DNA of 64,000 nucleotides from assembly GCA_965220745.1 (NCBI GenBank), contig CBDCQT010000010.1, positions 512,001-576,000 of the forward strand, written 5' to 3'. The notes under the pieces were generated by a model. It was not told where the DNA came from. It worked only from the letters and a program-made list of their open reading frames with translations, and did no database searches. Positions within the stretch are counted from its first letter, which is position 1; every line of letters starts with the position of its first letter. Positions 2,101 to 12,222 of the stretch are shown here, in pieces. Origin of the DNA: Alphaproteobacteria bacterium. Lineage in GTDB: Bacteria > Pseudomonadota > Alphaproteobacteria > UBA828. A program made the position numbers and the translations under genes.

Positions 2101-2823
2101 TTGCCCGTGGGTGGCGTTCTCGTTCTCGGCCTCTTGGTCGGCATGCGTCATGCGCTGGAAGCTGACCATGTCGCCGCCGTCGCCGCGCTGACGGCGCGTA
2201 GTCGGAAGCTAGGTGGCGCCCTTCGCCTCGGTGCGGCATGGGGACTGGGGCACACACTGACGCTCTTCGCTGCGGGCACCGTGGTGCTCTCGCTCGACGG
2301 CGTCATGCCCGAGCGCATCGCGCACCTCTTCGAGTTTGCCGTCGGCATCATGCTGGTGCTGCTGGGGGCCGACCTGCTGCGGCGCCTGATCGCGGCGCGC
2401 GTTCACTTCCACATGCACCGCCACGGCGACGGCACGACGCACTTTCATGCTCACAGCCACGCCGGCGAGGCCGATCACGCCGGATCGCGCCATGACCACG
2501 TGCACGCGCGCGGCCTGCCCGTGCGTGCACTCGCGGTCGGACTGATGCATGGGCTCGCGGGGTCTGCGGCGCTGATCCTGCTGACGGCGGGGCAGATCGA
2601 CTCGCTTGTCTGGGCGCTCGCCTACCTTGCGCTCTTCGGCATCGGCTCGATGATCGGCATGGCCGCACTCTCGGTTGTCATCGCGATTCCGCTACAGCGG
2701 CTGGCGCGAAGCCTCTCCTGGGCACACAACGCGCTGGGTGCCGCCGTCGGGCTCGGCACCATCGGTCTCGGCGCCTGGATTGCTTACCGGATCGGCATCG
2801 TCGAAGGGCTGACGCTTGGCTAG
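2101..2823 (+). CDS. UreH/HoxN-like nickel/cobalt permease
   Basis: 'GMRHALEADHVAAV', 'WGLGHT', His-rich loop, 'GLMHGLAGSAAL', multiple TM helices; GGAGG immediately before TTG. Confidence 0.85.
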   Translation: MPVGGVLVLGLLVGMRHALEADHVAAVAALTARSRKLGGALRLGAAWGLGHTLTLFAAGTVVLSLDGVMPERIAHLFEFAVGIMLVLLGADLLRRLIAARVHFHMHRHGDGTTHFHAHSHAGEADHAGSRHDHVHARGLPVRALAVGLMHGLAGSAALILLTAGQIDSLVWALAYLALFGIGSMIGMAALSVVIAIPLQRLARSLSWAHNALGAAVGLGTIGLGAWIAYRIGIVEGLTLG

Positions 2824-2847
2824 AGCTTTTCCGTCCCACACGGAGGC

Positions 2848-3006
2848 ATGTCGTTTCTCGCGCACGCGAGCGCGAGGGAGGCCAGCCGGTACGTCGCAGC
2901 CGCAAATCGGGCGCGGCTCACGAGCTCGGGCATGGCGAAACTGAGGACGGAACCGGAACAAGTTTTGTCCAACCTTTCCGAAAGGTTAGACAAAAGGGGG
3001 TTCTAG
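2848..3006 (+). pseudogene. Tyrosine integrase C-terminal remnant
   Basis: Translates MSFLAHASAREASRYVAAANRARLTSSGMAKL...LSNLSERLDKRGF*; box II His (LAH) and catalytic Tyr (RY) spacing typical of phage integrases; ends 32 bp from the tRNA-Glu 3' end. Confidence 0.75.
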
Positions 3007-3038
3007 GCCTTTGAAACGTAAAGAAAAAGCAAAATGGA

Positions 3039-3114
3039 TGGCGTCCCCAGGGGGACTCGAACCCCCGTTTCCGGCGTGAGAGGCCGGTGTCCTAGGCCAC
3101 TAGACGATGGGGAC
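3039..3114 (-). tRNA. tRNA-Glu(CTC)
   Basis: Reverse complement GTCCCCATCGTCTAGTGGCCTAGGACACCGGC-CT-CTC-AC-GCCGGAAACGGGGGTTCGAGTCCCCCTGGGGACGCCA; full cloverleaf with CCA. Confidence 0.97.
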
Positions 3115-3267
3115 GCGGCCCCCTGGAGATAGCCCAGAAAGGCCGCGAACTCAACCGTCGGCAGGGACGGCCTTGACGAGAGCCCGGTCGGACTTTCGCT
3201 CCCCGGTCGAGGACGTTCCGGGTATCGTGCGCCCGGCGGCGCTGCCGCCGGGAGGAGGCGGTTCCCC

Positions 3268-4293
3268 ATGTTCGAGGAGTTCGGGTTCGAGGAGCTGACG
3301 CCGATCACGGCCTCCGTGCTGCTTGGGCTGGTGCTCGGCCTGGCCTATGGCGCGCTCGCGCAGCGCAGCGCGTTCTGCCTGCGCCGCAGCCTGGTGGGCC
3401 AGTGGCGCGACTGCCTGCCGGCGCTGGGCACATGGGTGATGGCGCTGGCGACCGCGATCGCCGGCACCCGCGTGGCGGTTGCTTTCGATCTGATCTCCTT
3501 CGAGGCGCATCGCTTTCTCGCGGCCGACCTGCCGGTCGCGTCAGCGCTGCTGGGCGGCGCGCTCTTCGGAGCCGGCATGGTGCTGACGGGCGGCTGCGTC
3601 TCGCGCCTCACGGTGCTGGTCGGCACCGGCAATCTGCGCGCCTTGCTCGTCCTGGTCGTCTTTGCCGTCACCGCCCACGCGGTGATGAAGGGCGCGCTGG
3701 CCCCGATCCGCGAGGCGGTGGGGGACGCGACCGTCCCCGGCGGTGCAGCGACGGCACTCGCGGCCTGGCCCGGCGGCGAGGTCTGGCCGGCGATCGTCGC
3801 GAGCGCCGCGTTTCTCTTCGCGCTCTTCTCCCGTGCGCGTATCTCCCATCTGGCAATGGCAGCCGCGATCGGGCTGCTGGTGCCGCTCGGCTGGATCGGT
3901 ACGGGGTTCGTGCTGCTGGACGATTTCGACCCGATCCCCGTGGCGTCCATGGGCTTCACCGGGCCGATGGCGGACACGCTGTTCTGGGCCGTGGCGGCGA
4001 CCTCGATTCCGGCGGGCTTCGGCACCGGCCTCGCCGCGGGCGTCCTGCTCGGCAGCCTGGCGGCGGCGCTCGCCGCGGGCGAGTTCCGCTGGCAGAGCCT
4101 GGAAGGCCCGCGCCAGACCGGGCGCTACCTCGCCGGCGCCGTGATGATGGGCGTGGGTGGCGTGCTGGCGGGCGGCTGCACGGTGGGCGCCGGTCTTTCC
4201 GGCGTCTCGACCGCGAGCCTTGCCGCCCTGCTCGCGCTCGCCGCCATGGCCGTCTCGGCGCGGGCCACAGGGGTGCTTCTCACCGCGCGTTAG
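3268..4293 (+). CDS. YeeE/YedE family sulfur-compound (thiosulfate) transporter
   Basis: Hydrophobic protein with the conserved Cys motifs FCLRR, GMVLTGGCVS and GGVLAGGCTVG; next to sox genes. Confidence 0.9.
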   Translation: MFEEFGFEELTPITASVLLGLVLGLAYGALAQRSAFCLRRSLVGQWRDCLPALGTWVMALATAIAGTRVAVAFDLISFEAHRFLAADLPVASALLGGALFGAGMVLTGGCVSRLTVLVGTGNLRALLVLVVFAVTAHAVMKGALAPIREAVGDATVPGGAATALAAWPGGEVWPAIVASAAFLFALFSRARISHLAMAAAIGLLVPLGWIGTGFVLLDDFDPIPVASMGFTGPMADTLFWAVAATSIPAGFGTGLAAGVLLGSLAAALAAGEFRWQSLEGPRQTGRYLAGAVMMGVGGVLAGGCTVGAGLSGVSTASLAALLALAAMAVSARATGVLLTAR

Positions 4294-6933: not shown

Positions 6934-7353
6934 TCAGCCGCAGCCGCCAACGGTGACCGCGATCTTCTGGGAGGCCTCGCGGAACGTGCCGTCCGCCATC
7001 TCCGCCACCGCGTAGACGGTCTGGCTCTGCGCGAGCCGGATGCGGATCGTGGCTTCGGGCCGCACCAGCCTGCCGAAGTTGAAGACCGCGACGCCGGGAT
7101 TCGGGTTTCCGTCGTTGAAGAGGGCGATGCGTCGCGCGCCCTCGGCCACGACCCGGATCGGCACGGCGCCGCCGTTGTCGAAGATTTCGGGCGCGTCGAG
7201 CAGCACGCCGCCTTCTAGCCGCAGCGCGCTTCCGGTGAATTCGTCGATGGCCTGCCAGACGCCGTTGGAGGCCTGGGCCGCACCGGCCGGGATCAGCGCA
7301 GCCGCCGTGGCGGAAGCGCTGAGCAGCAATACATCCCTGCGTGTCGGTGCCAT
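6934..7353 (-). CDS. soxY: Sulfur carrier protein SoxY
   Basis: Tat signal TRRDVL, 'APEIFDNGGAVPI', 'GNPNP', 'RIRLAQSQ', C-terminal VTVGGCG. Confidence 0.9.
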   Translation of the reverse strand: MAPTRRDVLLLSASATAAALIPAGAAQASNGVWQAIDEFTGSALRLEGGVLLDAPEIFDNGGAVPIRVVAEGARRIALFNDGNPNPGVAVFNFGRLVRPEATIRIRLAQSQTVYAVAEMADGTFREASQKIAVTVGGCG

Positions 7354-7388
7354 CGTGCAGCCTTCTCCCGCTCGCGGGGTCATGGGCG

Positions 7389-7418
7389 ATATGGCGCCCC
7401 TTGGCGGCACCCGTCAAG
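7389..7418 (-). promoter_or_regulatory. Putative RpoD-type promoter of the sox operon
   Basis: Minus strand CTTGAC-N18-CCATAT, close to the alphaproteobacterial CTTGAC-N17-CTATAT pattern. Confidence 0.5.
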
Positions 7419-7489
7419 CCCCCGGTGCGCGGGCGCTCGCATGCGTCTGTCGTCAAGCACTATGTTCAGTTACTTTCGACTACCGACCT

Positions 7490-8281
7490 TTAGTCGTCGC
7501 CTGTCCATCGTTCTTCTCGCTCTTGATCGCGCGCCTCCGCAGTGCGCCCTTCCGCATCGTTGGTGTATTCGGTGGCCATGACTCCCTGAACCGGAGCGAT
7601 CATGACTTTGTTTAAGTTGAGAAATTGGACGAGGGTATCAATCTCTTCCGCTGTGGTCAGGCGAAAGGAGCCCTCTAGGGCCGTCCCATCAAACGCCGCA
7701 CGGAATGGCGTTCCCTGTTGCGGAGGTGGTGGCGGCGCCAAATCGGCACCCGACGACATGCTCGGTTGCATTGTTTGGTCCGCCTCTTTGCCAAGTTCAG
7801 CAGGACCTTGATCGTAGAAAGCACTCTCGCGTTCGGCAAGCTCCATTGTTTCACGATAGGCGAGCAAAGCGATGCCTGCCGCCCCACTATTGAAGTTATT
7901 TCGCAAAAGATAGTTCCGCAGAAGTCCCTCGTTGTCCCGGCCGCCGGGGAAACGCTCGGTTAGGGTCGCGAAGAGTTCCGGGTCAGATGCAGCATCCTGG
8001 ATGGCGCTCACACGCTCCTGGGGAGATTCAGGGTGGAGGCACTTCATCCCGCGCTCACTGATCTTGAGGTCGCTTCCCTGGCGCTCCAAAAGACCGTATT
8101 TCTTCAAAGCTGATACGGCCGTCGCAGACTTGCCATGCAGACCGGAATAGCCCAGCCCCGTCGCTATGTCCTCTCGCGGCGCGGGGTGCGCCTGGACCGC
8201 GTTCCACAGCCTCTGCAGGCGCTCCAACGCCTCCGGTAGCCCGAGGGCAGGGTAGTTCGGGGATCGCGCTCGCTTGCTCAT
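7490..8281 (-). CDS. Hypothetical protein with N-terminal winged-helix-like region (accessory)
   Basis: ATG 8281 preceded by GGAG; 'SPNYPALGLPEALERL...LGYSGLHGKSATAVSALKKYGLLE' looks like a wHTH; lower GC than neighbours. Confidence 0.75.
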   Translation of the reverse strand: MSKRARSPNYPALGLPEALERLQRLWNAVQAHPAPREDIATGLGYSGLHGKSATAVSALKKYGLLERQGSDLKISERGMKCLHPESPQERVSAIQDAASDPELFATLTERFPGGRDNEGLLRNYLLRNNFNSGAAGIALLAYRETMELAERESAFYDQGPAELGKEADQTMQPSMSSGADLAPPPPPQQGTPFRAAFDGTALEGSFRLTTAEEIDTLVQFLNLNKVMIAPVQGVMATEYTNDAEGRTAEARDQEREERWTGDD

Positions 8282-8282
8282 C

Positions 8283-8317
8283 GTTATTCTCCACTCGTAC
8301 GTGGTGGGGAGAATAAC
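8283..8317. promoter_or_regulatory. 10-bp inverted repeat overlapping the RBS and -10 of the 7490-8281 gene
   Basis: GTTATTCTCC-N15-GGAGAATAAC. Confidence 0.65.
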
Positions 8318-8338
8318 ACGCTCCCTCGTGTACGTAAA
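8310..8338 (-). promoter_or_regulatory. Putative sigma70 promoter (leftward)
   Basis: Minus strand TTTACG-N17-TATTCT. Confidence 0.5.
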
Positions 8339-8359
8339 ACTTTTTTCACGACTTCCAGG

Positions 8360-8388
8360 TTGACGAGAGACTCTGGCAATAGCAGAAT
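8360..8388 (+). promoter_or_regulatory. Putative sigma70 promoter (rightward)
   Basis: TTGACG-N17-CAGAAT. Confidence 0.6.
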
Positions 8389-8415
8389 GAGCCCCAGAGC
8401 GAGTCGGAGGCGCAT

Positions 8416-8505
8416 ATGAACAGAAGAGAGTGGAGCCCCCACCGGTATCGCCGAGCGCTGGCGGGGGCGAGGACAAACAGCAGGGGCCGCTGCCCAGCTC
8501 CCTAA
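8416..8505 (+). CDS. Possible 29-aa leader peptide MNRREWSPHRYRRALAGARTNSRGRCPAP
   Basis: GGAGG at 8406-8410, 5-nt spacer, ATG; ends at TAA inside a predicted pseudoknot. Confidence 0.35.
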   Translation: MNRREWSPHRYRRALAGARTNSRGRCPAP

Positions 8506-8541
8506 GACGCAAGCAGCGGCCCCGAATCGGCCCGTCTTAGG
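8483..8541 (+). ncRNA. Predicted H-type pseudoknot directly 5' of the tRNA-like element
   Basis: Stem 1: GGGGCCGCTGC (8483-8493) / GCAGCGGCCCC (8513-8523); stem 2: CCTAAGACG (8501-8509) / CGTCTTAGG (8533-8541). Confidence 0.55.
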
Positions 8542-8630
8542 AGGCGTAGCAGAGCGGTCGAATGCAGCGGTCCTTAAAAACCGCCGGACCTCCCTTGGTC
8601 TCGTGGGCTCGAAGCCCACCGCCTCCGCCA
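8540..8630 (+). tRNA. Atypical tRNA-Ser-like RNA (8-nt anticodon loop, non-canonical T-loop); functional status unknown
   Basis: Acceptor GGAGGCG/CGCCTCC, G73, CCA; D-arm GCA/TGC; anticodon stem GCGGT/ACCGC with loop CCTTAAAA; long variable arm GGACC/GGTCT; T stem GTGGG/CCCAC with loop CTCGAAG. Confidence 0.8.
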
Positions 8631-8847
8631 GACCCCACTAAGGCCGATGTGTCCATAGCACGTCGGCCAACTTTTTAAAATCAATCTTTTGCCCAGCGTT
8701 TCGAAGCGGCCTTCCGCACGATTTCCCGCCGCCGCTCGGGCGAGAGGGGCGGACTTCGAACTGACGCAGTACCGTGCATTGACGCGCCCCGGCCTTCGCG
8801 CGAGCATAACAGATTCCGCGAGTGTGGCTCTCAGGGAGGAACGGGAC

Positions 8848-10122
8848 ATGGCGCGCACCGTCTTCACCAACGTCAGCATCTTCGACGGCACCGGCAAGAG
8901 GCCCTTCCGGGGCGAGGTGTCGATCCAGGGCAACCGTATCGAGAAGGTCGCCAGGAACGGCCAGAAGCTGTCGCGGCGGGGCGCTGCGGTGGTGGACGGC
9001 GACGGCGCCACGCTGATGCCGGGGCTCGTCAACGCCCACTGCCACATGAGCTACACCGGGCCGGAAGCGATGTCCGAGATCCCGCCCGAGGAGCACACGC
9101 TCATCACCATGCACAACGCCAAGACGATCATCGATCACGGCGTGACCGCGGCTGTGGGCGCGGGCGCGGCGAAGACACGCCTCGATATCGTGATCCGGAA
9201 CGAGATCGACGCCGGCCGCATCCCCGGTCCGCGCTACCGCGCCTGCTCGCCGGAGATCACGGTCACCGGCGGCCTCGGCGACCAGCGCATGCTGCACTAC
9301 TACAAGAACGACCTCTCGCTCTTCGCCGATGGGCCGGAGGAGATCCGCCAGGCCTGCCGCATGCTGGTCCGCGAAGGCGTGGACATCATCAAGCTCATGC
9401 CGTCGGGCGATCACCTGATCCCCGGTGCCTGCGATGCCACCCAGAGCGCGATGGACGAGGACGAGATCGCCGCCGGCGCGCGGGTCGCGCACCAGCGGGG
9501 CCGCCGCCTCGCCGCGCACGCGCGCAATCCGGAATCGATCCGGCTCTGTATCAAGTACGGGATCGAGCTGATCTACCACGCGACCTACGCGGACGAGGAA
9601 TCTCTCGACCTGCTGGAGGAGCACAAGGACAGGCACTGGGTGGTGCCGGCGATCGGCTTCACCCACGCGACTGCCTACGAGGCCGGCGAGTTCGGCATCT
9701 CGCCGGCGGAAGCCGAGTCATGGGGCTTCGTCCGCGAGCTCGAGATCGGAGCCGAGACCCTGAAGAAGATGCACGCGCGCGCAATCAAGGTGCTGCCCTT
9801 CGGCGACTACGGCTTCCCCTGGACGCCGCACGGCCAGATGGCGCGGGACTTCGAGCACTTCACCAACTACCTCGGCATGAAGCCCTACGAGATCATGCGG
9901 GCCGCGACCCACTACGGCGCCCAGGCCTTCGCTGCGCCGGACGAGCTGGGCCGCGTCAAGCCGGGCTGCCTCGCCGACCTGCTGCTGATCGACGGCAATC
10001 CGCTCGCCGATCTCACGCTCTTCCAGGACGAGGCGAACATCCTGATGGTCATGAAGGACGGCGCCTATCACAAAGCGCCGCAGGCGCGGCAGAGGGTCGT
10101 GCAGCAGGCCGCAGCCGAGTAG
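8848..10122 (+). CDS. Metal-dependent amidohydrolase family protein
   Basis: 'TLMPGLVNAHCH' HxH motif, 'GVDIIK', 'AAHA', 'GRVKPGCLADLLLIDGNPL'; GGGAGG RBS. Confidence 0.9.
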   Translation: MARTVFTNVSIFDGTGKRPFRGEVSIQGNRIEKVARNGQKLSRRGAAVVDGDGATLMPGLVNAHCHMSYTGPEAMSEIPPEEHTLITMHNAKTIIDHGVTAAVGAGAAKTRLDIVIRNEIDAGRIPGPRYRACSPEITVTGGLGDQRMLHYYKNDLSLFADGPEEIRQACRMLVREGVDIIKLMPSGDHLIPGACDATQSAMDEDEIAAGARVAHQRGRRLAAHARNPESIRLCIKYGIELIYHATYADEESLDLLEEHKDRHWVVPAIGFTHATAYEAGEFGISPAEAESWGFVRELEIGAETLKKMHARAIKVLPFGDYGFPWTPHGQMARDFEHFTNYLGMKPYEIMRAATHYGAQAFAAPDELGRVKPGCLADLLLIDGNPLADLTLFQDEANILMVMKDGAYHKAPQARQRVVQQAAAE

Positions 10123-10137
10123 CCCAGCAGACCCGCG

Positions 10138-11310
10138 ATGGCGGCGCCCGACCGGGAGACGCTGCTCGCCGGCGCGGAAGCGCTGATCCCCGTGCTGCGC
10201 GAGCGGGTGCCGGAGGCGGAGTCCCTCCGGCGCATTCCCGACGCGTCCATCGCCGACCTCGTGGACAGCGGCCTGATCCGGGCGACGCTGCCGGCGCGCC
10301 TCGGCGGGGCCGAGGTGGACTATGGCACGATGATGGAGATCGTGGCGCTGCTCTCGCGCGGCTGCGCGTCCACCGGCTGGGTCTACTGCAACCTCGCGAG
10401 CTGCACCTTCAAGCTCGCGCTCTGGCCCGAGCGGGCGCAGGACGAGATTTGGGACGCGGACAAGGACGCGCTGCTGACCGGCAATCTGATCTTCCCCTGC
10501 GGCAAGGCGACACGGGTGGACGGCGGCTATCGCCTAAGCGGGCGCTGGCCCTTCGGCAGCGGCATCGACCACGCCTGCGCCAACTTCTTCGGCGCCATGG
10601 TGGTGGACAGGGAGCCGCAGGAGTTCCGCATCTTCCTGGTGCCGAAGGGCGAGTACACCGTGCTCGACACCTGGCACGCGTCGGGCCTGCGCGGCACCGG
10701 CAGCAACGACGCCGCGGTGGATGACCTGTTCGTGCCGGAATACCGCACCATCGACGCGGCGAGTACGCGCCACGGCGCCGCACCCGGCAACGCGTTGAAC
10801 ACCGGCGCGGTCTACCGGCTGCCGCTCTTCGCCATGTTCTTCACCTGGGTCGGCGCGGCGGTGCTGGGCATCGCCGAGGCGGCGGTCGAGGGCTATGTCG
10901 AGGCCACCCGCACCCGCGCCGCGCACTATTCGGGCCAGCGGCTCGCCGAGCTCGGCACCATCCACGTCAAGATCGCCGAGGCCCGCGCCGCCGTGGCGAC
11001 GGCGCGGCGCATCTACCTCGGCAACTGCGCCGAGGCGACGGCGATCGCCGAGGGAGGCGCGCTGCCGGATGCCGAGGCCCGCGCCCGCTACCGGGCCGAG
11101 GGCGCCTACGCCGCCAAGCTCTGCTGCCAGGCGGTGGACATGATCACCGCGGCGAGCGGCGGCGGCGGCGTCTACGACCGCAACCCCCTCTCCCGTGCCT
11201 TCCGCGACATCCACGCGGGCTCGGCCCACATCACCCAGACCTGGGACCCCAACGCGATCACCTACGGCCGCTTATCGCTCGGCCTGGAAACCGACAACCC
11301 GCTTCTCTAG
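10138..11310 (+). CDS. Acyl-CoA dehydrogenase-fold flavin-dependent monooxygenase (HsaA-like)
   Basis: 'GCASTGW', 'GGYRLSGRWPFGSG', 'DTWHASGLRGTGSND', 'RAFRDIHA'. Confidence 0.88.
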   Translation: MAAPDRETLLAGAEALIPVLRERVPEAESLRRIPDASIADLVDSGLIRATLPARLGGAEVDYGTMMEIVALLSRGCASTGWVYCNLASCTFKLALWPERAQDEIWDADKDALLTGNLIFPCGKATRVDGGYRLSGRWPFGSGIDHACANFFGAMVVDREPQEFRIFLVPKGEYTVLDTWHASGLRGTGSNDAAVDDLFVPEYRTIDAASTRHGAAPGNALNTGAVYRLPLFAMFFTWVGAAVLGIAEAAVEGYVEATRTRAAHYSGQRLAELGTIHVKIAEARAAVATARRIYLGNCAEATAIAEGGALPDAEARARYRAEGAYAAKLCCQAVDMITAASGGGGVYDRNPLSRAFRDIHAGSAHITQTWDPNAITYGRLSLGLETDNPLL

Positions 11311-11322
11311 CCCGGCGAAGAA

Positions 11323-11952
11323 TCAGTGGCGCTTGAGCGCCGGGAAGCCGGGGTATTCCGAGGCGTGGTCGCCGGCGTGGTTCGCCATGCCGAGCTTGGT
11401 GAGGCAGCCCTTGGGCGCCGCAAAGCTCTCGATGCGCCGGTTGGGCTGCTCGCACCAGCGAAGATTGAAGGCGGCGTAGGTGGGGAAGAACGCCATGTCC
11501 GAGTACGGCAGGTTGTCGTGTATCCACCAGGCGAGGGCCTGCCAGGGCGTGCCCGCTTCGTAGCGCGGGATGAACCAGGGAATCACGATACAGGCGGTCG
11601 CCCCCATGTGGCCCTCGGCATCGCGGCGATCCCACACGTGGCGGGCATAGTTCCAGGTGGTCTCGCCGCAGTTGTAGCCTTTGTCCGACCGCTCGTGGCC
11701 GTAGGTGTTGACCTCGACGGAGCGGAAGGCGGAGCGGATCGAGACATGGCCGAAGGTGGCGTGCAGGGGCTCCAGCAGCTCCTCGCAGAGCCTAGTCCCG
11801 GCCGCGACGGCGAGATCGGGATCGTCCGGAATGTTGGGTATCCCGTGGAAGTTCGCGATCTCGCTATGGAGCATCTCGCGCATGAAGAAGTGCTCGGACA
11901 GCCGGACTCGGCCGAGCCTTTCGAGGGCCTTCATGGAGGCGGGCTTGCGCAT
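11323..11952 (-). CDS. Peptidase M15-like protein
   Basis: 'RLSEHFFMREMLHSE', 'LCEELLEPL', 'IRSAFRS'; AAGGAG RBS. Confidence 0.65.
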   Translation of the reverse strand: MRKPASMKALERLGRVRLSEHFFMREMLHSEIANFHGIPNIPDDPDLAVAAGTRLCEELLEPLHATFGHVSIRSAFRSVEVNTYGHERSDKGYNCGETTWNYARHVWDRRDAEGHMGATACIVIPWFIPRYEAGTPWQALAWWIHDNLPYSDMAFFPTYAAFNLRWCEQPNRRIESFAAPKGCLTKLGMANHAGDHASEYPGFPALKRH

Positions 11953-12145: not shown

Positions 12146-12222
12146 GCGCTCGTAGCTCAGCTGGATAGAGCACCAGACTACGAATCTGGGGGTCGGGGGT
12201 TCGAATCCTCCCGAGCGCGCCA
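12146..12222 (+). tRNA. tRNA-Arg(ACG)
   Basis: GCGCTCGTAGCTCAGCTGGATAGAGCACCAGA-CT-ACG-AA-TCTGG...GGTTCGAATCC...CGAGCGCGCCA. Confidence 0.97.

Follow-up and report, generated by a model that had tools for sequence, protein, structure and literature searches.

What is a gene for a protein with a predicted winged helix doing back to back with a structured RNA that ends in an aberrant tRNA? The question is raised by a patch of DNA between soxY and an amidohydrolase gene in an alphaproteobacterium of the GTDB lineage UBA828 (assembly GCA_965220745.1, contig CBDCQT010000010.1, positions 512,001 to 576,000 of the forward strand). These 64,000 nucleotides are called the window, and coordinates without a further label count from its first letter. 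An initial annotation of the sequence proposed a compact module of a protein and a tRNA mimic, such as a toxin/antitoxin pair, an antiphage system, or a decoy for an anticodon nuclease. Comparison with homologous loci indicates, with moderate confidence, that window positions ~7437 to 8773 are a truncated IS1-family-like element whose surviving part is the conserved accessory module of the family, consisting of a regulator (protein A), a translated leader RNA, and a tRNA of the ochre-suppressor type. The initial observation is partly confirmed by this comparison; its interpretation was right on the linkage of protein and RNA and wrong on the kind of system.

Linkage of protein A with a leader RNA and a tRNA

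The two outer components of the module are the following.

7490 to 8281, minus strand: protein A, an open reading frame (ORF) of 263 amino acids (aa) with its ATG at 8281
8540 to 8630, plus strand: class II tRNA gene of the Ser type, a 91-nucleotide (nt) cloverleaf with an encoded CCA, from an ochre-suppressor (UUA) family

An alignment of 26 protein A homologs served as the sole query for homologous loci and led to 40 loci from species-representative genomes and 80 from metagenomes, 74 of which reach at least 150 nt upstream; tRNA counts for these loci are not dereplicated. ARAGORN finds a divergent tRNA 260 to 380 bp upstream of the protein A start in 22 of the 40 genome loci and a divergent upstream tRNA in 33 of the 74 metagenome loci. 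The anticodon is UUA in 14 of the genome-locus tRNAs, CUA in one, and UAU in one; three short tRNAs are labeled "UAC," and "taaa," "cg," and GGU occur once each. Among the metagenome tRNAs, 16 carry UUA. The covariance models R1 and R2 detect the leader RNA, described below, at the expected position in 53 dereplicated loci. One of these is too short to judge what follows the leader; in the other 52, the leader is followed by an ARAGORN tRNA (28 loci), by an uncalled tRNA-like T arm (11 loci), or by neither (13 loci). The 28 called tRNAs comprise 15 of class II with UUA, 1 "taaa" with the same CUUUAAA loop, 1 CUA, 1 UGG, and 10 short ones. After the 13 tRNA-less leaders come a hairpin or terminator, a transposase gene, or another small ORF in some loci. 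Protein A, the structured leader, and the tRNA thus belong together as a conserved module, their proximity not being due to chance, and the homologs, including the covariation of the leader, bear out the linkage that the initial annotation had proposed.

The transposable element and its two layouts

An IS1-like DDE transposase recurs beside the module, in 17 of the 40 genome loci by clustering and in 18 by tblastn. With Pfam DDE_Tnp_IS1 (cut-off of 24.1), the transposases of loci L032 (33.7 bits) and L037 (28.4 bits) score above the cut-off and that of L029 (22.0 bits) below it; with NCBIfam transpos_IS1, the scores of 62 to 64 bits lie below the cut-off of 100. A pattern search shows terminal inverted repeats of the form GGTAGTGTCTCAG(TTTGAAAT) bracketing units of 2.4 to 3.6 kb in eight loci, at first in L029, L032, L037, and L038 and then also in L031, L035, L039, and L049. 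Besides the tRNA, the leader, protein A, and the transposase, a full unit contains small passenger ORFs that vary.

The elements show two layouts. In loci with a class II UUA tRNA and a transposase, the transposase gene follows protein A (11 of 11). In loci with a short, uncalled, or absent tRNA, the transposase gene lies downstream of the leader and on its strand (18 of 19). The locus of genome G027 belongs to this second layout and is broken by IS21 and IS256 insertions.

Full elements show further features of their own. In the full elements, for example at L032 3790 to 3835, the transposase start codon lies within a conserved hairpin (AGGGGCATGAACAAATTGCCCCT), which sits behind a promoter-like TTGACG...TCATATA embedded in the inverted repeat ATGCTTGACGnTAAGCAT; judged by this arrangement, the transposase start region is likely a second control point of the element. 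L037 contains variable passenger ORFs in the interval that separates its inverted repeat from the tRNA (1875 to 2630), one of which encodes a protein of ~80 aa starting MPKGPKGEKRPADVIG; ~90 nt of the 5' part of this passenger ORF recur at three to four other places in the carrier genome G045, with 74 to 87% identity. In the congener G008 (locus L025), the leader and tRNA are flanked by a second GGTAATGTCTCAG repeat, which points away from the module and lies directly past a neighboring gene for a 284-aa protein (repeats at 8875 to 8887 and 11738 to 11750); the stretch from the tRNA to the outer repeat is interrupted by an IS1595-family transposase (10325 to 11296).

The truncated copy in the window

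The insert in the window and its two ends are as follows.

7437 to 8773, no strand: inserted segment of ~1.34 kb in the soxY/amidohydrolase gap, probably a truncated IS1-family-like element
7437 to 7489, minus strand: putative transposase-promoter remnant downstream of protein A, reading TGCTTGACG..., with a -35 hexamer at 7451 to 7456
8753 to 8773, minus strand: degenerate terminal inverted repeat reading GGTACTGCGTCAGTTCGAAGT, matching the GGTAGTGTCTCAGTTTGAAAT ends at 16 of 21 positions

The genes soxY (6934 to 7410, minus strand) and amidohydrolase (from about 8849, plus strand) bracket a patch of lower GC content, as the initial annotation had described: the fraction is 0.56 to 0.63 across 7400 to 8600, compared to 0.65 to 0.72 in the flanks. 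The insertion is polymorphic at this site, with 10 of the 11 loci of the same genus being empty, that is, with soxY directly adjoining the amidohydrolase gene. The homology of these same-genus loci to the window ends at 7427 to 7446 and restarts at 8773 to 8793; a comparison with locus L149 places the left junction at 7436/7437, and the right host junction coincides with the outer base of the degenerate repeat. At the left end, the remnant was matched by eye to the conserved ATGCTTGACGnTAAGCAT...TCATATA...AGGGG-ATGAACAAA stretch that comes after protein A in full elements, and no IS1-like transposase was found after protein A in the window insert. The left junction falls within the region where full elements have their transposase promoter, so that the transposase and the other inverted repeat appear to have been deleted; because this end is a deletion, a target-site duplication is unreadable for the window copy.

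The closest relatives of the window copy are the metagenome loci L067 to L069, whose protein A is 86% identical. Over 7465 to 8736, the window and L067 share 88% identity overall, with 76% in the divergent promoter region, and the window copy lacks ~500 nt of the stretch that separates the tRNA from the repeat in L067. The protein A genes of the window and L067 show 89% DNA identity and a ratio of nonsynonymous to synonymous substitution rates (dN/dS) of 0.24, a value that spans the entire divergence between the two and not just the time since truncation; it points to purifying selection on protein A. The leader is 91% identical to that of L067, with all helices intact. Judged from these comparisons, protein A and the leader are still conserved in the window copy despite the loss of the transposase and of one end.

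The eleventh congener locus (L150 of genome G011, 2529 to 3779) contains a different insertion of ~1.25 kb at the equivalent site, with small ORFs, including a KRPAD-motif protein resembling the L037 passenger ORF, and a gene pair for proteins of 111 and 153 aa. Given this different insert, the soxY/amidohydrolase junction may be an insertion hotspot. The source genome (G000) contains a sole full IS1-like transposase of this element family elsewhere, at contig C13:629017-630118 (L147 1224 to 2325); it is a 296-aa ORF with 61% identity to the L032 transposase and lies ~135 bp from a tRNA-Pro(GGG) gene on the same strand. Neither protein A nor the leader is present beside this transposase, and a search with model R2 there was negative. 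Ordinary genes for tRNA-Glu(CUC) (3039 to 3114) and tRNA-Arg(ACG) (12146 to 12222) flank the region in the window and are unrelated to the module.

The leader RNA

The transcript opposite to protein A shows the following elements upstream and downstream of the tRNA.

8406 to 8505, plus strand: Shine-Dalgarno sequence and upstream ORF (uORF), with GGAGG at 8406 to 8410 and 29 codons from the ATG at 8416 to the TAA at 8503 to 8505
8435 to 8468, plus strand: hairpin P1 (8435 to 8445 with 8458 to 8468), with 10 standard pairs and one A·C mismatch
8483 to 8523, plus strand: hairpin P2 (8483 to 8493 with 8513 to 8523)
8527 to 8531, plus strand: 3' strand of the pseudoknot, UCGGC, which pairs with 8450 to 8454
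8642 to 8678, plus strand: predicted intrinsic terminator of the leader-tRNA transcript, an 11-bp stem (8642 to 8668) followed by the T run AACTTTTTAA

The strong ribosome-binding site with a uORF and the hairpin at 8435 to 8468 were both recognized by the initial annotation and are present. The H-type pseudoknot that it drew at 8483 to 8541 stands in one of its two stems, that of P2. The other, 8501 to 8509 with 8534 to 8542, can form in the window and is paired in 56.7% of the cells across 15 relatives, compared to 39 to 51% in slid controls; the conserved pseudoknot partner is instead the strand GCCGA (8450 to 8454) in the P1 loop, pairing with UCGGC (8527 to 8531). The RNA from 8395 to 8672 (278 nt) folds better than all 200 shuffled sequences (z = -3.97).

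The leader is a conserved RNA of ~120 nt with a fixed order of elements: a Shine-Dalgarno sequence, an ATG, usually one codon, AGAAGAG, P1, a purine-rich junction, P2, and a strand complementary to the P1 loop. The tRNA begins 8 to 12 nt past this last strand. There are two classes of leaders, with pseudoknot strands that are wholly different and complementary within each class, namely, GCUCACC/GGUGAGC in class 1 and GCCGA/UCGGC in class 2, to which the window leader belongs. In the alignment of class 1 (A5; 19 sequences), 92.5% of the cells form standard pairs, compared to 33 to 43% in slid controls, and both sides change in 21 of 30 pairs; none of 500 shuffles attains the observed values. 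By helix, 9 of 11 pairs in P1 and 9 of 12 in P2 change on both sides, and the pseudoknot is paired in 97.7% of the cells. RNAalifold independently predicts P2, with compensatory changes in 8 of 10 pairs. In the class 2 alignment (MAFFT; 15 sequences including the window), P1 is paired in 70%, P2 in 82.7%, and the loop-tail pseudoknot in 91% of the cells. Covariation across these alignments shows the leader fold, in which the P1 loop pairs with the tail past P2 to form a pseudoknot with the two hairpins.

A Shine-Dalgarno sequence and an ATG in register with an ORF of at least 15 codons occur in 30 of 54 dereplicated leaders, a count obtained by a strict automatic rule that makes it a lower bound and that includes one artifact (L124). 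These uORFs stop with TGA in 20, TAA in 7, and TAG in 3 cases. In the window, the uORF spans P1 and the 5' strand of P2, and in general it ends inside or just beyond the 5' strand of P2, so that uORF translation and the leader fold should be mutually exclusive. The conserved peptide residues M-x-R-R..A-P overlie conserved RNA elements, and selection on the peptide is therefore inseparable from selection on the RNA.

A comparison of the leader with Rfam 15 gives only chance-level matches (15 to 17 bits; E of 0.8 to 9). One of these candidates, the Xanthomonas small RNA sX4, was rejected as a relative, as its resemblance of 16 bits merely reflects the tRNA-Ser-like part; the weak match spans window positions 8526 to 8745, and the sX4 consensus itself looks tRNA-Ser derived. 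A T-box-like pairing of the anticodon with a leader codon was likewise rejected, since the class 1 junction UAAC is unchanged in loci with CUA or UGG and absent in class 2.

The tRNA and its lesions in the window copy

Among the class II tRNAs of the module, conservation is strongest in the anticodon arm AGCGGUCUUUAAAACCGC and extends to the acceptor stem and the T arm, whereas the D and variable arms drift; the D arm and the discriminator alternate between a Ser-like (G73) and a Leu-like (A73) form. The short, Glu-like tRNA-like sequences have well-formed acceptor and T arms, malformed anticodon stems, and a pyrimidine at position 37, with a UUAC motif kept in the loop. ARAGORN gives a 7-bp acceptor stem and a 5-bp T stem for the tRNAs of the window and of the genomes G008, G001, and G027.

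Features of the window tRNA include a long variable arm, a 3-bp D stem with the D loop GAGCGGUCGAA, and the discriminator G73. The tRNA-Ser genes of its own genome are its closest match, with 74% identity for tRNA-Ser(UGA); the genome contains the four normal serine isoacceptors GCU, CGA, GGA, and UGA. The Ser-like cloverleaf with CCA was correctly read in the initial annotation, and it is aberrant through an anticodon loop of 8 nt, CCUUAAAA, with UUA inside, and through the T loop CUCGAAG. The canonical 7-nt anticodon loop with U33 and the T54-Psi55-C56 T loop are thus both absent. ARAGORN labels the gene "Stop|Leu." With Rfam RF00005, whose gathering threshold is 29 bits, no match is obtained at E ≤ 10, whereas the intact relatives L025 (G008), L032, L067, and L028 reach 56 to 62 bits on this model. 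An identity as transfer-messenger RNA was rejected, since ARAGORN places that gene elsewhere in the genome.

The congener G008 has a leader and tRNA 91% identical over 274 nt, with a normal 7-nt loop, CUUUAAA, and the anticodon UUA, of the ochre-suppressor type; the anticodon in the congener G001 is CUA. The tRNAs of L067 to L069 likewise show UUA in the 7-nt loop CUUUAAA, together with the T loop UUCGAAU and G9. The window tRNA is identical to that of L067 at 85 of 91 positions and differs at G9, in the anticodon loop, and at T54 and T60, all of which are canonical in L067 and G008. A9, the 8-nt loop, C54, and G60 are therefore private derived changes of the window copy at normally invariant positions, which makes the window tRNA probably inactive or attenuated as a decoder.

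Class II module tRNAs with sense anticodons, UGG or AGG (Pro), CAA (Leu), and UAU (Ile AUA), are found at L135, L138, L141, L145, L125, L057, L034, and L027. Charging with Ser or Leu would turn them into missense tRNAs.

Protein A and the divergent promoter region

The AlphaFold model of protein A (mean predicted local distance difference test score of 79) shows a winged helix at residues ~15 to 82, a helical domain to ~157, a disordered linker at ~165 to 189, and a small C-terminal domain with a β-hairpin and a helix. The winged-helix-like protein of the initial annotation is thus reproduced at its N terminus, with weak Foldseek matches in the PDB to the winged helices of IclR, MarR, and PadR and to the RNA-binding winged helix of SelB (E from 0.04 at best to 0.3; template modeling score of 0.2). 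By this model, protein A resembles MarR, IclR, and PadR regulators at the fold level only. Neither the structure nor the fold search shows a nuclease or toxin domain. Pfam gives nothing significant, with CARF-assoc_HTH at the top (E of 0.043), and neither protein A nor the 284-aa neighbor protein of G008 matches NCBIfam. The ESM Atlas returns unnamed clusters only, the nearest named lead being DUF5343 at 0.85. The family comprises 474 homologs at E ≤ 1e-3, every one of which is unnamed or "hypothetical" and without Pfam domains.

Two features lie between protein A and the leader.

8283 to 8317, no strand: perfect 10-bp inverted repeat, GTTATTCTCC (8283 to 8292) and GGAGAATAAC (8308 to 8317), overlapping the Shine-Dalgarno sequence of protein A
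8360 to 8388, plus strand: sigma-70-like promoter of the leader-tRNA transcript, TTGACG-17-CAGAAT, with 9 of 12 matches

The rightward promoter, which had been proposed at this position, is the single match of a promoter scan across 7300 to 8900, where shuffled sequences average 0.3 matches; the leftward promoter proposed at 8310 to 8338 is not found by the scan. The inverted repeat is a candidate operator or a hairpin in the 5' untranslated region. The divergent promoter region of the window also contains CGTACG and GTACGT motifs, and the intergenic regions of relatives show three to five copies of CTAACG/CGTTAG. From the predicted fold and the repeated motifs, the simplest reading is that protein A most likely autoregulates the divergent promoters.

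Distribution

Of 401 genomes sampled evenly from the class, 5 encode protein A (E ≤ 1e-10), the source genome among them; within the genus, 2 of 20 further genomes contain the leader-tRNA. Most of the 40 genome loci come from Alphaproteobacteria, while Beta- and Gammaproteobacteria, Myxococcota, Acidobacteriota, Chloroflexota, Armatimonadota, Abditibacteriota, and Rokubacteria contribute single loci. A search of 72,556 plasmids gives no match. IMG/VR contains five distant protein relatives only, and no leader is detected in these five by model R2, the one model used there.

Proposed mechanism and its weak points

In the proposed mechanism, protein A would bind the repeats in the divergent promoter region with its winged helix and regulate its own gene and the opposite transcript. 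This transcript would open with the leader of ~120 nt, in which a ribosome-binding site and uORF overlap P1, P2, and the pseudoknot. Since a ribosome on the uORF must melt the leader fold, the leader is most likely a translation-coupled cis-acting switch for the RNA downstream, and a ribosome terminating in P2 would hold the fold open. The gated RNA would be a long-arm UUA tRNA of the Ser/Leu type followed by a terminator or, in the sister layout, the transposase message. The tRNA scaffolds for Ser and Leu are charged by synthetases that ignore the anticodon.

Several results weigh against this reading. A DNA-binding role of protein A is deduced from its fold and from the motif repeats, and homology of the 284-aa neighbor protein of G008 to protein A is unproven (BLASTP E of 14; hhalign E of 0.0018 with a probability of 15%). 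Terminal repeats were not found for the second layout in four loci. Each of five genomes checked contains one full-length copy, a count that gives no sign of transposon activity. Of 52 leaders, 13 (25%) have no tRNA-like sequence, and the short tRNA-like sequences have malformed anticodon stems, so that the conserved role may be something other than decoding. Covariation with the anticodon is not seen for any codon of the leader, of protein A, or of the transposase, and the choice of stop codon is mixed: protein A stops vary across the 40 genome loci, and among 34 full-length transposase matches, 17 end in TGA, 8 in TAG, and 8 in TAA, with 1 running off its locus. A suppressor acting on the genes of the module itself was therefore rejected as a general mechanism; read-through of TAA fuses protein A with the transposase in one of eight full elements (L029).

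Alternative explanations

In the most probable of the alternatives, the tRNA of the intact element would be a real ochre suppressor under tight control and serve as functional cargo, with UAA read-through across the cell or at particular genes of the element or host giving a conditional benefit to either. We regard this as possible, at somewhat less than even chances. It agrees with the Ser/Leu-type bodies of the tRNAs, with the UUA anticodon in a 7-nt CUUUAAA loop in 14 of 22 genome-locus and 16 of 33 metagenome tRNAs, and with intact members scoring like normal tRNAs. Two layers of control, a regulator protein and a uORF leader, would suit a potentially toxic product, and natural suppressor and missense tRNAs of another structural class are reported to be active and toxic in Escherichia coli (PMC5389517). 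No target of the suppressor was found beyond the single fusion in L029, however, and the stop choice of the element's own genes is unremarkable. The fraction of leader-bearing loci without a tRNA also speaks against this explanation, as does the window copy, which lost the canonical features of the tRNA and kept protein A and the leader.

A different role for the same RNA, somewhat less probable than the cargo, is that the tRNA or tRNA-like sequence is kept not for decoding but as a handle for processing or stability. Cuts by RNase P or RNase Z would give the leader its 3' end and, in the sister layout, separate the transposase mRNA, and in a GC-rich host, a chargeable tRNA body would do the least harm with UUA or another anticodon for rare codons. 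The interchangeability of what follows the leader (class II tRNA, short tRNA-like sequence, bare hairpin or terminator, transposase, or other ORF) favors this view, and so do the short type, with its good acceptor and T arms and malformed anticodon arm, and the tolerance of an 8-nt loop in the window next to a leader that is still conserved. Among the stop codons of the source genome, TAA is used least (12.7% of 2,355 long ORFs with high GC at the third codon position), and anticodons other than UUA occur too (CUA, UAU, UGG, AGG, and CAA), the codons of which are rare in GC-rich genomes. In contrast, conservation in the class II tRNAs peaks at the anticodon stem-loop AGCGGUCUUUAAAACCGC, with drift in the D and variable arms, which argues for selection on the anticodon loop itself. 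UUA moreover appears in the loops of two unrelated scaffolds, class II and short Glu-like, and a handle does not need to be chargeable, yet G73 or A73, the long arm, and the encoded CCA are kept.

On a par with the handle, and likewise rather unlikely, is the view that the whole remnant in the source genome is nonfunctional debris in decay. The transposase and one inverted repeat are missing, the ~500 nt of L067 are absent, and the lesions of the tRNA lie at invariant positions. Opposed to this are protein A, which is full length with the low dN/dS over its whole divergence from L067, the leader with its 91% identity and intact helices, and the intact promoter, Shine-Dalgarno sequence, and terminator. 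The initial annotation had named chance prophage debris as its own alternative; of this, a truncated element with a damaged tRNA remains, and the debris would be that of a transposon and not of a prophage.

A broader proposal, more speculative than any of the explanations above, describes a transposon family with a gated modifier of the genetic code. Here, the regulator and the uORF-pseudoknot leader would sense the status of translation or termination and release an ochre suppressor acting in trans, either on the control of transposition or on UAA read-through across the cell, while the same sensor in the sister lineage would gate the transposase directly. If true, it would provide the first case in nature of a regulated nonsense suppressor borne by a transposon, together with a new class of cis-regulatory RNA that is both translated and pseudoknotted.

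A stand-alone system of a protein and a tRNA mimic (toxin/antitoxin, abortive infection, or anticodon-nuclease decoy), as favored by the initial annotation, is very improbable: the conserved linkage of a small protein gene with a structured RNA or tRNA, the patchy and mobile distribution, and the placement of odd tRNAs near toxin-antitoxin genes and transposon-related ORFs reported in the allo-tRNA paper (PMC5389517) would suit it, but PADLOC-DB gives 0 families at E ≤ 0.1 for protein A of the window, its L026 and L032 relatives, and the 284-aa neighbor protein of G008, Pfam gives no significant match and NCBIfam none for protein A of the window, the fold is that of a DNA binder without a nuclease or toxin domain, viral relatives are few and distant, plasmid matches are lacking, and the recurring partner gene, inside IS1-family-like elements, is a DDE transposase driven by the same leader in the sister layout.

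The preferred reading, an IS1-family-like element with a conserved accessory module, would add a new type of passenger and a layer of regulation to IS1-family elements and would be a source of "tRNA-Sup" or undetermined calls in genome annotation. Natural nonsense-suppressor tRNAs are rare in standard-code bacteria and usually dismissed as accidents; here, ochre-suppressor-type tRNAs recur in one neighborhood, together with a partner protein, a covarying translated leader, and a transposase. Testable questions are opened as to how a stop-reading tRNA is tolerated and controlled, whether transposons use tRNA-shaped RNAs for processing or signaling, and what the leader senses.

Comparison with known systems

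An apparently undescribed family is formed by IS1-like elements that combine a winged-helix protein with a pseudoknotted, translated leader and a tRNA of the ochre-suppressor type. In the full-text literature searched, no tRNA-carrying insertion sequence is described, and neither is this leader or the protein A family; the supplementary tables of PMC5389517 and PMC13092985 could list some of the tRNAs. The latter, a survey from 2026, gives suppressor tRNAs for 0.3% of standard-code genomes, and the part of it drawn on here does not give their context.

The closest known tRNAs are the allo-tRNAs, natural tRNAs of Ser or Ala identity with stop or rare sense anticodons, including UUA and UAU, which are defined by an 8/4 or 9/3 geometry of the acceptor and T stems (Mukai et al. 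2017, PMC5389517). According to that paper, they resemble the module tRNAs as extra genes with a patchy distribution, decayed or inactive copies, and a location near transposon-related ORFs and toxin-antitoxin genes; the passages drawn on here report no conserved uORF-pseudoknot leader, winged-helix partner, or IS1-like element. In contrast to the 8/4 or 9/3 stems of the allo-tRNAs, the module tRNAs show ordinary 7/5 stems.

Classical laboratory ochre suppressors, such as the anticodon mutants of the E. coli tyrosine tRNA, are single-base mutants of essential host tRNA genes. They share with the module tRNAs a UUA anticodon on a body still recognized by a synthetase. Here, however, the suppressor-type tRNA comes from a dedicated gene that is additional to the host set, moves horizontally, and has a promoter, a leader, and a partner protein of its own.

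In IS1, the gene for the helix-turn-helix (HTH) protein InsA precedes the transposase. The elements described here resemble the IS1 family in this respect, with an HTH protein gene upstream of the transposase, as well as in the DDE_Tnp_IS1-type transposase and in terminal repeats starting GGT(A/G)... They differ in their size of 2.4 to 3.6 kb with passenger genes, a structured leader RNA, and a tRNA, and in a transposase with its own promoter and start, with no frameshift fusion evident.

Theta ribozymes, which are similar to those of hepatitis delta virus, lie beside suppressor tRNAs in stop-recoding gut phages, with a proposed role in tRNA maturation or switching (PMC10879173). Like the leader, they are pseudoknotted RNAs that directly adjoin the gene for a suppressor tRNA in a mobile genome. 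The leader described here differs in being upstream, translated, without an Rfam family, and located in transposons of mostly Alphaproteobacteria, and ribozyme activity is not implied.

Leader-peptide or uORF attenuators and T-box leaders share with the module a short ORF or structured 5' leader that decides the fate of a downstream RNA, as well as a link to tRNA. Unlike in these systems, no terminator/antiterminator alternative and no covariation of a specifier with the anticodon were found in the leader, and the regulated product would be a tRNA or a transposase.

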